Of a stretch of 64,000 nucleotides of DNA, positions 3,706-63,049 are shown piece after piece. The position numbers and the translations under genes are program-made. Origin of the DNA: Escherichia coli (GTDB taxonomy: Bacteria; Pseudomonadota; Gammaproteobacteria; Enterobacterales; Enterobacteriaceae). Location: assembly GCF_051903065.1 (NCBI RefSeq), contig NZ_CP178438.1. One strand, given 5' to 3'. The stretch's first letter is position 1. Every line of letters starts with the position of its first letter. The notes under the pieces are model-generated. The model did no database searches, was not told the DNA's origin, and saw nothing but the letters and a program-made list of their open reading frames with translations.

Positions 3706-4569
3706 ATGATCCGCAGTATGACCGCCTACGCCCGGCGTGAAATCAAGGGTGAATGGGGGAGCGCAACCTGGGAAATGCGCTCGGTAAACCAGCGTTATCT
3801 GGAAACTTACTTTCGTCTGCCGGAGCAGTTCCGTAGCCTTGAACCTGTCGTTCGCGAGCGTATTCGTTCTCGCCTGACGCGCGGTAAAGTGGAATGTACC
3901 CTGCGCTATGAGCCAGATGTTAGCGCGCAAGGTGAGCTGATCCTCAACGAAAAACTGGCTAAACAGCTGGTAACTGCCGCGAACTGGGTAAAAATGCAGA
4001 GTGACGAAGGGGAAATCAACCCGGTTGATATTCTACGCTGGCCGGGCGTGATGGCAGCCCAGGAGCAGGATCTTGACGCCATTGCCGCTGAAATTCTCGC
4101 GGCGCTGGATGGTACGCTGGACGACTTTATTGTCGCGCGCGAAACCGAAGGTCAGGCACTGAAAGCATTGATCGAGCAGCGTCTGGAAGGCGTCACCGCC
4201 GAAGTGGTCAAAGTCCGCTCCCATATGCCGGAAATCCTGCAATGGCAGCGTGAACGCTTGGTCGCGAAGCTGGAAGATGCTCAGGTTCAGTTGGAAAACA
4301 ACCGTCTGGAGCAGGAGTTGGTTCTGCTGGCACAACGAATTGACGTTGCCGAAGAACTGGACCGCCTCGAAGCGCATGTCAAAGAGACCTACAACATTCT
4401 GAAGAAAAAAGAAGCCGTTGGTCGTCGTCTGGACTTTATGATGCAGGAGTTCAACCGCGAGTCGAACACTCTTGCGTCGAAGTCTATCAATGCCGAAGTG
4501 ACAAACTCCGCGATTGAGCTGAAAGTGTTGATTGAGCAGATGCGCGAGCAGATTCAGAATATTGAATAA
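3706..4569 (+). CDS. yicC: YicC family stress-induced protein
   Basis: 287 aa ORF MIRSMTAYARREIKGEWGSATWEMRSVNQRYLE... matches YicC. Confidence 0.93.
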   Translation: MIRSMTAYARREIKGEWGSATWEMRSVNQRYLETYFRLPEQFRSLEPVVRERIRSRLTRGKVECTLRYEPDVSAQGELILNEKLAKQLVTAANWVKMQSDEGEINPVDILRWPGVMAAQEQDLDAIAAEILAALDGTLDDFIVARETEGQALKALIEQRLEGVTAEVVKVRSHMPEILQWQRERLVAKLEDAQVQLENNRLEQELVLLAQRIDVAEELDRLEAHVKETYNILKKKEAVGRRLDFMMQEFNRESNTLASKSINAEVTNSAIELKVLIEQMREQIQNIE

Positions 4570-4729
4570 CTCGTAACGCCAATTCTTACTTTTCAGCCTT
4601 CACAAATGCCGCCCACTCAAACAGAGCGGCATTTTTCTTCCCCGCAACTTTCAATTCTGTTTTTCGTGCCTGCTCCAGATTTTGCGATGTTTTTTTGCCC
4701 AGCACACTGAGAACGTGAGATACTCACAA

Positions 4730-4745
4730 CTGTATATAAATACAG
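4730..4745 (+). promoter_or_regulatory. LexA (SOS) box CTGTATATAAATACAG upstream of dinD
   Basis: Perfect CTG-N10-CAG palindrome about 45 bp upstream of the dinD start; dinD is a known SOS gene. Confidence 0.8.
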
Positions 4746-4790
4746 TTACAGATTTACTTTCTTTGCAATTGATATCACATGGAGTGGGCA

Positions 4791-5615
4791 ATGAACGAAC
4801 ATCATCAACCTTTTGAAGAGATAAAACTGATTAATGCAAACGGAGCAGAACAATGGTCAGCAAGACAACTTGGGAAACTACTGGGTTATTCAGAGTATCG
4901 TCACTTTATACCTGTATTAACGCGCGCCAAAGAAGCCTGTGAGAACAGTGGTCACACAATTGATGACCATTTCGAGGAGATCCTCGATATGGTCAAAATT
5001 GGCTCAAATGCCAAAAGAGCATTAAAAGACATCGTACTCTCCCGCTATGCCTGTTACCTGGTAGTACAAAACGGCGACCCTGCGAAACCGGTCATTGCGT
5101 CAGGGCAGACTTATTTTGCTATCCAGACCCGACGGCAGGAGCTTGCTGACGATGAAGCATTTAAGCAACTTCGTGAAGACGAAAAGCGTCTGTTTCTGAG
5201 AAATGAGTTGAAAGAACATAACAAACAATTGGTTGAGGCAGCACAGCAAGCTGGGGTAGCGACAGCTACTGATTTCGCCATATTTCAGAATCATGGTTAC
5301 CAGGGGCTGTATGGTGGATTAGATCAGAAAGCTATTCATCAGCGGAAGGGGCTGAAAAAGAATCAGAAGATCCTGGATCATATGGGTTCAACAGAACTGG
5401 CGGCTAATCTCTTTCGAGCTACCCAAACAGAAGAAAAACTCAAGCGGGATGGCGTGAATTCAAAACAGCAAGCTAATACCACACACTTTGACGTGGGTAG
5501 CAAGGTGAGGCAAACCATTCAGGAACTTGGCGGAACCATGCCTGAGGAGTTGCCGACCCCGCAGGTCAGCATCAAGCAGTTGGAAAACAGTGTAAAAATT
5601 ACAGAGAAGAAATAG
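4791..5615 (+). CDS. dinD: DNA damage-inducible protein D
   Basis: Translation from ATG at 4791 (MNEHHQPFEEIKLINANGAEQWSARQLGKLLGY...) matches DinD; preceded by a LexA box. Confidence 0.92.
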   Translation: MNEHHQPFEEIKLINANGAEQWSARQLGKLLGYSEYRHFIPVLTRAKEACENSGHTIDDHFEEILDMVKIGSNAKRALKDIVLSRYACYLVVQNGDPAKPVIASGQTYFAIQTRRQELADDEAFKQLREDEKRLFLRNELKEHNKQLVEAAQQAGVATATDFAIFQNHGYQGLYGGLDQKAIHQRKGLKKNQKILDHMGSTELAANLFRATQTEEKLKRDGVNSKQQANTTHFDVGSKVRQTIQELGGTMPEELPTPQVSIKQLENSVKITEKK

Positions 5616-23251: not shown

Positions 23252-23346
23252 GGAAGATCGTCGTCTCCGGTGAGGCGGCTGGACTTCAAATCCAGTTGGG
23301 GCCGCCAGCGGTCCCGGGCAGGTTCGACTCCTGTGATCTTCCGCCA
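23252..23346 (+). tRNA. selC: tRNA-Sec (selenocysteine tRNA, UCA anticodon)
   Basis: 95 nt sequence GGAAGATCGTCGTCTCCGGTGAGGCGGCTGGACTTCAAATCCAGTTGGGGCCGCCAGCGGTCCCGGGCAGGTTCGACTCCTGTGATCTTCCGCCA read directly; matches E. coli selC. Confidence 0.97.
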
Positions 23347-40702: not shown

Positions 40703-42391
40703 TTATTCCCCCACCATTTCAGTATTCGCCGCACCTGGCGGCACCATCGGGTAAACTTTTTCTTCGGCATCAATGCGCACATGGATCAGCGCCGGGCCAG
40801 GGCGATTGATGATTTCCTGCAATGAAGCCTGCGGATCGGCTTCGTTATTCAAATCACAGGTTTCGAGGCCGAATCCGGCGGCAATCTGCATAAAGTTGAT
40901 TTTGCCCGGATAGGTGGCGGCAAAAACGCCTTGCTCGTAGAACAGACTCTGTTGCTGATGCACCAGCCCCAGCGCTTCGTTGTTCATCAGAATGATTTTG
41001 ACATCCAGCTGATTTTCACTGGCGGTCGCCATCTCCTGAATATTCATCATCAGGCTGCCGTCGCCGGAGAAACACAACACTTTGCGATCCGGGTTCGCCA
41101 GCGCAGCGCCAATCGCCGCAGGCAGGCCAAAACCCATCGTGCCCAGCCCACCGGAGGTCAGCCACTGGCGTGGGCGATTGAGCGGATAAGCTTGCGCGGT
41201 CCACATCTGATGCTGACCAACGTCGGTGGTGATAATTGCATTGTCATCGACACAGGCGGCAACGGCGTTGATCAGGCCGTAATGGCTTAACGGATCGCAC
41301 GCTTTCGGGATTGGACACGGAAACTCACGCTGCAAATCCGCTACCAACTGGTGCCACTCTGCACGCGGTTGCGCTTCCACCAGCGGGATCAACTGCGCCA
41401 GCACGTCATCAACATCCGCCTGAATCGCCACGTGCGGCTGCTTGATTTTACCCAGCTCTGCACGGTCGATATCGACATGAATGATTTTGGCATTCGGACA
41501 GAACTGCTCGGTTTTGCCAATCGCCCGGTCATCAAAACGCGCACCGAGCACTATCAACAAATCCGCCTCCTGCAAAATATAGTTGGTGCTGCGCACGCCG
41601 TGCATCCCCAGCATACCCAGCGACAACGGATGCGCTTTTGGCAACATGCCCAGCGCCATTAAAGTCATGGTGGTAGGCAGTTGCGCTTTCTCCGCCAGTT
41701 CACGCACCCGTGCGGGCGCATTGATCACACCGCCGCCCAGATAAAGCACCGGGCGTTTGGCAGCGTTAATCATCGCCGCTGCGTCACGAATGCTTTCTTC
41801 GCTAAAGGCGGGGGCGGCGGCTTTTTCTGCCATAGCGGGCTGTGTTTCAATCTCAAAAACTGCCGTTTGCACATCCTTAGGAATGTCTATCCACACCGGG
41901 CCTGGGCGGCCTGATTGCGCAATGCGGAAGGCATCGCTCATGACCTGCGGGAGTTCTTCGATATGTCTGACCAGATAGTTGTGTTTGGTGATGGGGATAG
42001 AGATGCCGTAGGTGTCCACTTCCTGGAAGGCGTCGGTGCCGATCATCGAGGCGGGAACCTGACCAGTGATGCAAATCAGCGGGATGGAGTCCAGCCGCGC
42101 ATCGGCAATGGCGGTCACCAGGTTAGTCGCACCCGGTCCGCTACAGGCCATACAGACCGCCGGTTTACCGTCGGTGCGCGCCATTCCCTGAGCGATAAAG
42201 CCCGCGCCCTGTTCATGACGGGCCAGAATATGGCGGATTTGCGTGCTTTGGCTTAAGGCATCGTAAACAGGCAGGATAGAACCGCCCGGAATGCCTGTCA
42301 CAATCTTAATGCCCTGCTGTTCCAGGAAATGAACGATAAATTCTGCGCCGGTAAAGCGCTTACGCGTCGATGTTGTGCCCGAACTTGCCAT
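40703..42391 (-). CDS. ilvB: Acetolactate synthase I large subunit
   Basis: 562 aa MASSGTTSTRKRFTGAEFIVHFLEQQGIKIVTGIPGGSILPVYDAL...; ThDP-binding enzyme. Confidence 0.95.
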   Translation of the reverse strand: MASSGTTSTRKRFTGAEFIVHFLEQQGIKIVTGIPGGSILPVYDALSQSTQIRHILARHEQGAGFIAQGMARTDGKPAVCMACSGPGATNLVTAIADARLDSIPLICITGQVPASMIGTDAFQEVDTYGISIPITKHNYLVRHIEELPQVMSDAFRIAQSGRPGPVWIDIPKDVQTAVFEIETQPAMAEKAAAPAFSEESIRDAAAMINAAKRPVLYLGGGVINAPARVRELAEKAQLPTTMTLMALGMLPKAHPLSLGMLGMHGVRSTNYILQEADLLIVLGARFDDRAIGKTEQFCPNAKIIHVDIDRAELGKIKQPHVAIQADVDDVLAQLIPLVEAQPRAEWHQLVADLQREFPCPIPKACDPLSHYGLINAVAACVDDNAIITTDVGQHQMWTAQAYPLNRPRQWLTSGGLGTMGFGLPAAIGAALANPDRKVLCFSGDGSLMMNIQEMATASENQLDVKIILMNNEALGLVHQQQSLFYEQGVFAATYPGKINFMQIAAGFGLETCDLNNEADPQASLQEIINRPGPALIHVRIDAEEKVYPMVPPGAANTEMVGE

Positions 42392-42439
42392 GCTCCAGTC
42401 CTTTTCTTCTGGGCCGACTTTCCGGGAGGTGCTTAAACG

Positions 42440-42474
42440 AAAAACCCCGCCCGGTTTGCGCCGGCGGGGTTTTG
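42440..42474 (-). promoter_or_regulatory. ilvB attenuator terminator (GC-rich hairpin with flanking U/A runs) between ivbL and ilvB
   Basis: Sequence aaaaccccgcccggtttgcgccggcggggtttt read on + strand; hairpin plus T-run on the transcribed strand, located between leader peptide stop and ilvB start. Confidence 0.7.
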
Positions 42475-42595: not shown

Positions 42596-42724
42596 TGGGG
42601 ACCTTGTTGGTTTTGTGTTTAACAATATTTATACAAGCACAGCTTTACAGGGGAGACAATGGAAAATTTTTCAGCAAGGGAAAATTGAGGGGTTGATCAC
42701 GTTTTGTACTGAATTGCAGATAAC

Positions 42725-42865
42725 AAAAAACCCCGCCGGAGCGAGGTTTCGTCAGTCGCCTGCGGCTGGTAACCGCAAAGCACACTGTATTATGTCAACA
42801 CTGAAAGTATACGTGTTCCGCGCAGAACGCGCAATTTCGGCACGAATTTTGACGTATTTAGTGCA
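42725..42865 (-). ncRNA. istR: IstR antitoxin sRNA (IstR-1/IstR-2), approximate boundaries
   Basis: Minus-strand terminator (stem ccucgc/gcgggg with tetraloop, then U6) at 42725-42746; 20 nt element at 42781-42800 that repeats in the tisAB leader; LexA box just upstream; boundaries inferred, not measured. Confidence 0.5.
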
Positions 42866-42907
42866 TAGTTGAGTATCGATCACAGTTTGCGTTTTGTCCA
42901 AATATTA

Positions 42908-42923
42908 CTGTTTATTTATACAG
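42908..42923 (+). promoter_or_regulatory. LexA (SOS) box CTGTTTATTTATACAG in the istR/tisAB divergent control region
   Basis: CTG-N10-CAG palindrome immediately followed by a TATAAT hexamer at 42933-42938. Confidence 0.75.
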
Positions 42924-43159
42924 TAAACTTCTATAATATCACTGTACGCAATGTGTTATGCGGGGGCCGCATCGTTACCCGGCGCACTAAGTCCTGGCTG
43001 AAACGGGTGGTGCCGTCAGCGCCTTAACCCCGCGTGAGCACACTGTGTTATGTCAACAAGCACAACGTTTCTCCTTGAGATACCGCGTGCACAACAGCTG
43101 GCAACAGGCAGCGGAAAGGTACGTCAGCTGGCAGTGCTCCTGAACCACAGGAGACGCGT

Positions 43160-43249
43160 ATGAACCTGGTGGATATCGCCATTCTTATCCTCAAACTCAT
43201 TGTTGCAGCACTGCAACTGCTTGATGCTGTTCTGAAATACCTGAAGTAA
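43160..43249 (+). CDS. tisB: Type I toxin TisB (29 aa membrane peptide)
   Basis: Translation MNLVDIAILILKLIVAALQLLDAVLKYLK* read directly; below ORF-track cutoff. Confidence 0.88.
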   Translation: MNLVDIAILILKLIVAALQLLDAVLKYLK

Positions 43250-43271
43250 TTCAGATTCAAGTCGCACCAAA

Positions 43272-43297
43272 GGGGAGCGGGAAACCGCTCCCCTTTT
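43272..43297 (+). terminator. Rho-independent terminator after tisB (ggggagcgggaaaccgctcccc followed by T4)
   Basis: Perfect 9 bp stem with GAAA loop and T-run directly downstream of tisB stop. Confidence 0.75.
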
Positions 43298-43318
43298 ATA
43301 TTTAGCGTGCGGGTTGGT

Positions 43319-43354
43319 GTCGGATGCGATGCTGACGCATCTTATCCGCCCTAC
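43319..43354. repeat. REP (repetitive extragenic palindromic) element
   Basis: gtcggatgcgatgctgacgcatcttatccgccctac resembles the REP consensus (GCCGGATGCGGCGTGAACGCCTTATCCGGCCTAC). Confidence 0.6.
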
Positions 43355-43528
43355 CATCTCTCCCGGCAACATTTATTGCCGCTTTTGTTTACATATTCTG
43401 CCGCTAAACAATTCCCCATTCCTGGCGTATATCTGGCTAACATTCATCAATGTGATAGATTCCTCTCCCGCATTTATGGGAATGCGTAGTGACTTATTCT
43501 AATTATTTTTATAAAAGCATCCGTGATA

Positions 43529-57125: not shown

Positions 57126-57539
57126 TTAGTTGATTTCGATACGGCGCGGTTTTTTCGCTTCCGGAATCACGCGTTCGAGATCGATATACAGCAAACCATT
57201 TACCAGGTTAGCGCCACGAACATGAATGTTCTCAGCTAACTGGAATTTGCGTTCAAAGTTGCGTTCAGCGATGCCCTGGTACAGATAGGTGCGCTCTTTT
57301 TGTTCGTCGGCGTGAGCACCTTTCACCACCAGCAGATTATCCTGGGCGGTAATTTCCAGTTCGCTCTCAGCAAAACCAGCCACAGCGATAGCAATGCGGT
57401 AATGGTTTTCGTCTACCAGTTCAACGTTATACGGAGGGTAGCCGCCATTACTCTGGCTCTGGTTGTTTTCTAAGTGGTTAAACAAACGGTCAAATCCAAT
57501 AGCAGAACGGTAAAGCGGGGATAAATCAAAGTTACGCAT
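57126..57539 (-). CDS. ibpA: Small heat shock protein IbpA
   Basis: 137 aa [56 protein letters not shown]... Confidence 0.95.
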
Positions 57540-57844
57540 AATCAATAGCTCCTGAAATCAGCGAGAATGTAAGACCTTCCACAATGGACAGGTCAGGTAG
57601 CCAGAACACCCATCAGGCGCGTCCTCATCGGCTACGATGTAAAAATGGGTCTGGAAATGAACTTTTCAAGCCTTATCAGCGGACTTTTTTTTGCAGTTTA
57701 TGGTCTATTGCATAGACTGAGGGGGCAGCACGAAACGTTAAAGTGCGATAGCCGCCACAGTGCGACGTAATGATGATGTTATTTTCAGCAAGGGATCGCT
57801 ATAACTCATCAGGCCAACACCCACGATCAACAGATGAATTTATT

Positions 57845-62950: not shown

Positions 62951-63049
62951 GCCGGATGCGGCGTGAACGCCTTATCCGGCCTACAAAATCATGCAAAATC
63001 AATATATTGCAGGAGTCTCGTAGGCTTGATAAGCGTAGCGCATCAGGCA
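62951..63049. repeat. BIME: two REP elements in inverted orientation downstream of gyrB
   Basis: gccggatgcggcgtgaacgccttatccggcctac (62951-62984) and taggcttgataagcgtagcgcatcaggca (63021-63049) resemble REP consensus. Confidence 0.75.

Follow-up and report, generated by a model that had tools for sequence, protein, structure and literature searches.

The window (the whole stretch of DNA analysed, 64,000 nucleotides) almost certainly contains the chromosomal type I toxin-antitoxin locus tisAB/istR of Escherichia coli K-12, and a 22-nt direct repeat within it is the published pairing site of the antitoxin RNA and the toxin mRNA. The locus has already been published in full. Judged by its sequence, the assignment is supported by identity to K-12, a match of 150 bits to the Rfam istR model, and matches of the toxin to TisB equivalog models; together with the published pairing, these bear out the original prediction, which had read the region as istR/tisAB operating by the IstR-1 mechanism. 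None of our analyses yielded evidence contradicting this identity, and all of the sequence-level features that we looked for as marks of tisB/istR-1 membership are present.

Over the 801-nt segment that encloses the locus (42600-43400), identity to E. coli K-12 MG1655, a comparison that the original prediction had proposed, is 100%, and the same holds for many other strains. A match to this segment was found in 5424 of 5426 complete E. coli genomes. The RefSeq gene order around the locus is ilvB-ivbL-[istR]-tisB-ysdE-emrD, with which the open reading frames (ORFs) of the window concur, and both ORFs and annotation place the locus between ilvB/ivbL and emrD, as expected of tisB/istR-1. The istR gene of Salmonella has been placed between ilvB and emrD (PMC2515195). 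Two smaller elements lie between the tisAB terminator and emrD. One is the gene for the 24-residue protein YsdE at 43373-43447 on the minus strand (RefSeq annotation), and the other is a REP-like palindromic element (ggatgcgatgctgacgcatcttatccgccctac) at approximately 43300-43345; a single REP has been mentioned in the tisAB-emrD interval (PMC2577331). The REP-like element probably accounts for the extra places per genome returned by BLAST when searching with 42600-43400. The features of the locus are listed in Table 1.

Table 1. Features of the tisAB/istR locus, in window coordinates.
Feature	Position	Strand	Basis and remarks
IstR-1 antitoxin sRNA, ~75 nt	42725-42799	-	Within the RF01400 match; size from PMC2515195
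IstR-2, ~140 nt, LexA-controlled, contains IstR-1	42725-42865	-	5' end approximate, from promoter
istR intrinsic terminator	42725-42750	-	Terminator scan; stem 42750-42727, U-run to 42725
Constitutive istR-1 promoter	42806-42834	-	-35 TTGCGC (42834-42829), 17-nt spacer, -10 TATACT (42811-42806)
istR-2 promoter	42872-42900	-	-35 TGGACA, 17-nt spacer, -10 GATACT; consensus scan
LexA box TACTGTTTATTTATACAGTA	42906-42925	.	Single box common to the divergent tisAB and istR-2 promoters
22-nt element, copy 1, AGCACACTGTATTATGTCAACA	42779-42800	+	Reverse complement is the IstR-1 5' end (21 nt, 42799-42779)
22-nt element, copy 2, AGCACACTGTGTTATGTCAACA	43037-43058	+	IstR-1 target/standby region; overlaps the tisA AUG (43050)
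tisB, 29-aa membrane toxin	43160-43249	+	ORF, RefSeq, family models, tblastn
tisB Shine-Dalgarno sequence AGGAGA	43149-43154	+	Sequence; PMC11264685; sequestered in predicted structure
tisAB intrinsic terminator	43269-43300	+	Terminator scan, repeat search
tisAB -10 hexamer TATAAT	42932-42937	+	Sequence; PMC11264685 Table 1
Primary tisAB mRNA, ~359 nt	42944-43302	+	Length from PMC2577331; ends inferred
tisA ORF, 37 codons	43050-43163	+	Reported untranslated

The tisB ORF encodes the 29-residue protein MNLVDIAILILKLIVAALQLLDAVLKYLK. It had been predicted to be intact and to have a terminator of its own, and both points hold. The product matches the NCBIfam equivalog models NF011340 (69.6 bits; cut-off 53) and TIGR04459 (59.9 bits; cut-off 38) from residue 1 to residue 29 of 29, as well as Pfam family PF13939 (37.4 bits; cut-off 25), and a perfect 12-bp stem (43269-43296) with a T-rich tail follows the gene. 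The identical protein is recorded in RefSeq as TisB, WP_001054909.1. Residue 2 is asparagine; Asn2 TisB is the K-12-lineage variant carried by laboratory strains of K-12, the dominant E. coli variant being Ser2 (PMC11264685). The tisAB RNA is 359 nt long (PMC2577331) and exists in three forms, an inactive +1, an active +42, and an inert +106 species (PMC6690012). We assumed that +1 lies 7 nt after the -10 hexamer, at 42944, which puts the start of the active form at approximately 42985. In all three forms the tisB Shine-Dalgarno sequence is predicted to be largely paired, with a mean probability of being unpaired of ~0.2. The +42 processing site is spanned by the sequence GCATCGTTACCCGGCGCACT at 42969-42988, which is a published 20-nt antisense match to uxaA (PMC2577331); only one copy of this 20-mer is found in the window, because uxaA is located elsewhere in the genome.

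On the opposite strand, cmscan detected a full-length match to the Rfam istR family (RF01400, model positions 1-130 of 130) at 42725-42854 (150.1 bits, E = 3.5e-32; gathering score 45); scanning the whole window gave the same result. Two istR RNAs of ~75 nt and ~140 nt have been described (PMC2515195). Antitoxin activity resides in the ~75-nt IstR-1, whose pairing element is formed by nucleotides 1-21. We inferred its 5' end (G42799) from the TATACT -10 hexamer located 7 nt upstream. The predicted fold of IstR-1 (-32.5 kcal/mol, z = -4.05) comprises a 5' tail, one internal stem-loop and a rho-independent terminator, with nucleotides 1-12 unpaired in the minimum free energy (MFE) structure. The original prediction had put the sRNA at 42725-42865. 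An sRNA is indeed encoded there, but this span is that of IstR-2, and the active antitoxin occupies 42725-42799. Similarly, a minus-strand terminator is present as predicted, but the predicted span of 42725-42746 covered only its G+C core. In the 14-sequence alignment described below, this terminator has a mean identity to the window of 0.93.

A promoter and a terminator consistent with an sRNA had been named as a check on the minus-strand region, and two promoters were found in addition to the terminator: TGGACA-17-GATACT for istR-2 and TTGCGC-17-TATACT for istR-1. The hexamers of both are identical to those tabulated for MG1655 (PMC11264685 Table 1). A transcript from the former would begin near 42865 and end at 42725, giving the ~140 nt of IstR-2. 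With agreement at only 8 of 12 consensus positions, the istR-1 promoter was not flagged in the scan for consensus promoters; its -10 and -35 hexamers have mean identities of 0.96 and 0.89, respectively, in the 14-sequence alignment. A LexA box and an adjacent TATAAT had been predicted at 42908-42938, and both are present, with corrected coordinates of 42906-42925 for the box and 42932-42937 for the hexamer. The box has two mismatches to the palindromic consensus, for which no chance matches are expected in the entire window, and it overlaps the -35 region of the tisAB promoter. Thus, the locus contains a putative LexA box for tisAB and istR-2 and, ~70 nt away from it, a putative LexA-independent promoter for istR-1, as expected of tisB/istR-1. 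The 5' end of IstR-2 (~42865) and the tisAB +1 position (~42944) are ~80 nt apart, and the two genes diverge without overlapping.

Because of this divergent, non-overlapping arrangement, the complementarity between the two RNAs appears on a single DNA strand as a direct repeat. The repeat had been predicted as a 20-nt element with one mismatch. The direct orientation and the single mismatch (A/G) are correct, but the element is 22 nt long, with copies at 42779-42800 and 43037-43058. Exactly the 22-mer AGCACACTGTGTTATGTCAACA has been listed as the antisense match to istR in the tisAB RNA (PMC2577331), and 21 nt of complementarity to the tisB 5' UTR have been reported together with RNase III-dependent decay (PMC4147584). 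In the window, IstR-1 nucleotides 42799-42779 can pair with 43037-43057 of the tisAB leader, forming 20 Watson-Crick pairs and one G·U pair, which matches the pairing of about 20 nt that had been proposed for the two transcripts. All 21 nucleotides are pairable, because the A/G difference places a U of IstR-1 opposite a G of the mRNA. The ~21 nt of complementarity expected of tisB/istR-1 are therefore present, and the end of the target is ~90 nt from the Shine-Dalgarno sequence (43149). If +1 is 42944, the +106 product of RNase III would start at 43049, inside the duplex.

The stability of the duplex had been proposed as a further check, and calculation predicts the duplex to be stable. The energy of the 21-bp hybrid is predicted to be -33.5 kcal/mol. 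The predicted cost of opening the 21 nucleotides is 8.2 kcal/mol for IstR-1, compared to 6.8 and 10.5 kcal/mol for the +42 and +1 mRNAs, respectively, leaving a net duplex energy of approximately -18.5 kcal/mol with the +42 form. Co-folding of IstR-1 with the +42 mRNA recovered the same duplex (ddG of -26.1 kcal/mol). We set aside the value of -78 kcal/mol (z = -6) obtained from RNAduplex with full-length RNAs in favour of the opening-energy and co-fold values, because RNAduplex ignores intramolecular structure and over-extended the duplex. The target has a mean probability of being unpaired of 0.39 in the +1 form and 0.48 in the +42 form, and so the predictions separate the two forms only modestly. 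In the predicted MFE structure of the +1 form, the RNA's own 5' end (approximately +3 to +22) pairs across 43026-43048. This predicted structure agrees with the published view that the primary transcript keeps its standby region closed and that loss of 41 nt opens it.

We also looked for pairing beyond the 22-mer. Candidate motifs to its left (cgtcag..cgcc..taacc, and a 14-nt pair of segments at 42729-42742 and 43026-43039) were not significant: local alignment of the flanks gave a score of 17, compared to 13.5 ± 2.3 for shuffled sequences, and 184 of 2000 shuffles scored at least as high. This alignment test gives no indication that the duplication or the duplex extends beyond the 22-mer. A third partial copy of the element, CAATGTGTTATG at 42949-42960 (+6 to +17), was considered as a second IstR site and rejected, as a 12-mer with one or two mismatches is unremarkable. 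It may more simply be a part of the 5' segment that is predicted to pair with the standby region in the +1 structure.

To compare the locus across Enterobacteriaceae, one genome per species was scanned with a pattern that fixes conserved positions of IstR, including the stem-loop, but places no constraint on 10 of the 21 pairing positions. The 14 loci identified in this way belong to Citrobacter, Salmonella, Siccibacter, Franconibacter, Pseudenterobacter, an E. coli-clade genome, and other Enterobacteriaceae. Thirteen of these were used, the fourteenth sequence ending before the second copy, and the 13 loci and the window make up the 14-sequence alignment. Both copies of the 22-mer are present in the 13 loci, at a distance of 247-257 nt (258 in the window), and 20-22 of the 22 positions are pairable. 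A CTG-N10-CAG (LexA) box lies between the copies in all 13, and tblastn located a tisB homologue downstream in 12; the remaining locus (L005) is truncated. Peaks of conservation coincide with tisB and with the leader between +42 and +115, as well as with the LexA box, the promoter hexamers, the terminator of istR and the two copies of the 22-mer. Copy 2 is the most conserved segment of the leader, with a mean identity of 0.96, and just downstream of it identity drops to 30-40%.

One pair of positions in the duplex covaries, IstR-1 nucleotide 7 with mRNA position 43051: among the window and the 13 loci the pair is A-U in six, G-C in six, and A·C in two. An A·C mismatch is seen at IstR-1 nucleotide 5 or 7 in a few relatives, among them the Citrobacter loci L010 and L015, in which U is changed to C at 43051, and the G·U wobble at nucleotide 11 is specific to the Escherichia sequences, being C-G elsewhere. 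The support from covariation is thin, because the element barely varies, only one pair position changes on both sides, and the loci are related. The distance from copy 2 to tisB is not the same in all loci. In E. coli, Salmonella and other Citrobacter, tisB starts ~123 nt after the start of copy 2, compared to ~89-90 nt in Citrobacter sp. MGH106 (L002) and C. sedlakii (L014), so that the distance from the standby region to the ribosome-binding site (RBS) is ~33 nt shorter in the latter two.

With this evidence in hand, we considered whether the LexA-induced IstR-2 (42725-~42865), rather than IstR-1, could be the functional antitoxin. IstR-2 contains the same 21-nt element, and the predicted cost of opening it is similar (8.9 compared to 8.2 kcal/mol). 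Its promoter, moreover, was the one flagged by the consensus scan, and deletion of this promoter changed persister levels (PMC2826370). However, the pairing element is internal in IstR-2, which has no free 5' tail, and the IstR-2-specific 5' part is the least conserved portion of the RNA, with a mean identity of 0.59. IstR-1 alone has been reported to repress, and IstR-2 not to repress tisB translation (PMC11264685, PMC2826370). We therefore regard an antitoxin role of IstR-2 in place of IstR-1 as very unlikely.

A different mode of action of IstR-1 was suggested by the position of its target. The duplex at 43037-43057 covers the tisA start codon (43050-43052), and the tisA stop codon (43161-43163) overlaps the start of tisB at 43160, an arrangement typical of translational coupling. 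On these grounds we considered control in the style of hok/mok/sok, in which IstR-1 would block translation of tisA and hence of the coupled tisB. The comparative data argue against it: the ATG of tisA is ACG in eight of the 13 related loci, even though the surrounding 22-mer is nearly invariant, and neither the frame nor the length of tisA is conserved (6-46 codons), whereas the 22-mer, the LexA box and tisB are kept. The tisA ORF has no match among the protein family models of NCBIfam and Pfam, tisA has been reported to be untranslated (PMC2826370), and IstR-1 competes with standby ribosomes (PMC6690012). Thus, tisA is not the translated and conserved upstream ORF that characterises hok/sok systems. 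This kind of control of tisB has already been largely refuted, and we consider it even less probable than an IstR-2 antitoxin. Least credible of all, with a negligible probability and already refuted, is the reading of the direct repeat as a chance match or a neutral remnant of local duplication with no role in pairing. In its favour, intergenic DNA often contains short repeats, and there is the weak third partial copy (42949-42960). Against it, 100 shuffles of the 64-kb window that preserved dinucleotide composition produced no match with up to three mismatches, and chance is excluded by the preservation of both copies, with their spacing kept, in 13 loci representing at least five other genera, in which neighbouring sequence diverges to 30-40% identity. 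The end of similarity at the 22-mer disfavours a recent duplication, and the pairing has been the subject of published mutational and biochemical work.

Pairing of IstR-1 with the standby region thus remains the preferred reading, and the locus would work as follows. LexA would repress the tisAB promoter through the one box at 42906-42925, and DNA damage would release the ~359-nt primary mRNA. This form would not be translatable, because its tisB Shine-Dalgarno sequence is sequestered and its standby region is paired with the transcript's own 5' end. Loss of the first 41 nt would open a single-stranded region at ~43028-43058, to which the 30S subunit would bind with S1 before moving ~100 nt downstream to the tisB RBS. 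The constitutive 75-nt IstR-1 (42799-42725, minus strand) would pair through its first 21 nt with 43037-43057, thereby excluding the standby ribosome and forming a substrate for RNase III, cleavage by which would leave the inert +106 mRNA. At the DNA level, this pairing in trans has its footprint in the 22-nt direct repeat. In the published work, the standby region is single-stranded from +85 to +111 and binds 30S in an S1-dependent manner, and IstR-1 occludes it; the standby site blocked by the pairing lies ~100 nt upstream of the tisB Shine-Dalgarno sequence, RNase III cleavage is triggered, and the RBS is not masked (PMC6690012). Toxicity, repression, +42 processing, standby binding and RNase III cleavage were established by experiment on the identical K-12 sequence (PMC6690012, PMC4147584, PMC2826370). 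Our analysis contributes the identity to K-12, the gene families, the promoters and terminators, the LexA box, a stable and accessible predicted duplex, the conservation, and one covarying pair.

The near-invariance of the 22-mer in at least six genera may point to a constraint beyond simple pairing with IstR-1, possibly sequence-specific recognition by S1. We offer this as a tentative and on balance unlikely proposal. If it were true, a single mRNA segment would pair with IstR-1, pair with its own 5' end in the +1 form, and host the S1/30S standby complex, and recognition of a specific sequence by S1 would contrast with the nonspecific binding usually assumed for standby sites.

In itself, an intact tisB/istR-1 locus only confirms that the window comes from an ordinary chromosome of the E. 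coli K-12 type. tisB/istR-1 serves as the reference case for persister formation induced by the SOS response and for antisense regulation acting on a ribosome standby site, and it has a role in ciprofloxacin-induced persistence (PMC2826370). What the present case adds is that a trans-acting sRNA and its target were recovered, by reading sequence alone, from a short direct repeat between divergent genes. The same heuristic could be used on uncharacterised intergenic regions.

Several other elements were noted in the window. Scans with Rfam and ARAGORN gave matches to tRNA-Sec (selC) at 23252-23346 on the plus strand, ES036 sRNA at 62985-63027 on the plus strand, and a ROSE_2 RNA thermometer at 57533-57605 on the minus strand, which, from its position on the K-12 map, we take to be the ibpA leader. 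An Rfam match to P6 at 42286-42471 has a score of 22 bits against a gathering score of 50 and overlaps the 5' end of ilvB and the attenuator; we dismissed it, attributing it to the ivbL attenuator and its terminator-like hairpin. At 4728-4747 there is another strong LexA box, AACTGTATATAAATACAGTT, just upstream of an ORF at 4779/4788-5615 on the plus strand; yicC (3706-4569) also lies upstream of this ORF. The product of this ORF begins with MNEHHQPFEEIKLINANGAEQW and, going by the K-12 map, is presumably DinD; the gene is an ordinary SOS gene. Collinear transfer of coordinates from K-12 NZ_CP032667.1 predicted pyrE/slmA where yicC/dinD were found, an offset of ~2 kb. The offset implies an indel of ~2 kb between NZ_CP032667.1 and the window, located between ~4.7 kb and 42.6 kb, which is possibly an IS element. 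The 16-nt sequence CAACTGCTTGATGCTG within tisB (43214-43229, plus strand) recurs in reverse-complement form near the end of the dinD ORF (3' end; 5567-5582, minus strand), 38 kb away, with no matches expected by chance. A potential antisense interaction of tisAB with dinD has been described, with no demonstrated effect on the dinD mRNA (PMC2577331).

Compared to known systems, no difference was detected between the locus in the window and tisB/istR-1 of K-12 MG1655 (Vogel 2004 and Darfeuille 2007, as cited in PMC4147584 and PMC6690012): the sequence (801 nt), flanking genes, promoter hexamers, LexA box, 22-mer, and Shine-Dalgarno sequence are the same. The hok/mok/sok systems of plasmid R1 and of chromosomes share with tisB/istR a small membrane toxin, an mRNA that needs processing to become active, and an antisense RNA whose duplex with the mRNA is cut by RNase III. 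However, Sok is encoded in cis, overlaps its target gene and blocks the coupled leader ORF mok, whereas IstR-1 is encoded in trans by a divergent gene, and tisA, unlike mok, is neither translated nor conserved. The shoB-ohsC, zorO-orzO and dinQ-agrB systems, also type I toxin-antitoxin loci of E. coli, resemble tisB/istR in that the toxin and sRNA genes are divergent and non-overlapping (PMC4147584, PMC3919570, PMC3567139), the antitoxin pairs with the 5' UTR through 18-30 nt of complementarity that appear as a direct repeat in the DNA, and the toxin mRNA has a long 5' UTR requiring processing; dinQ, like tisB, is under LexA control. These three systems have other toxin families and other sRNAs than tisB/istR, and a long-range, S1-dependent standby site has been demonstrated biochemically for tisB alone.
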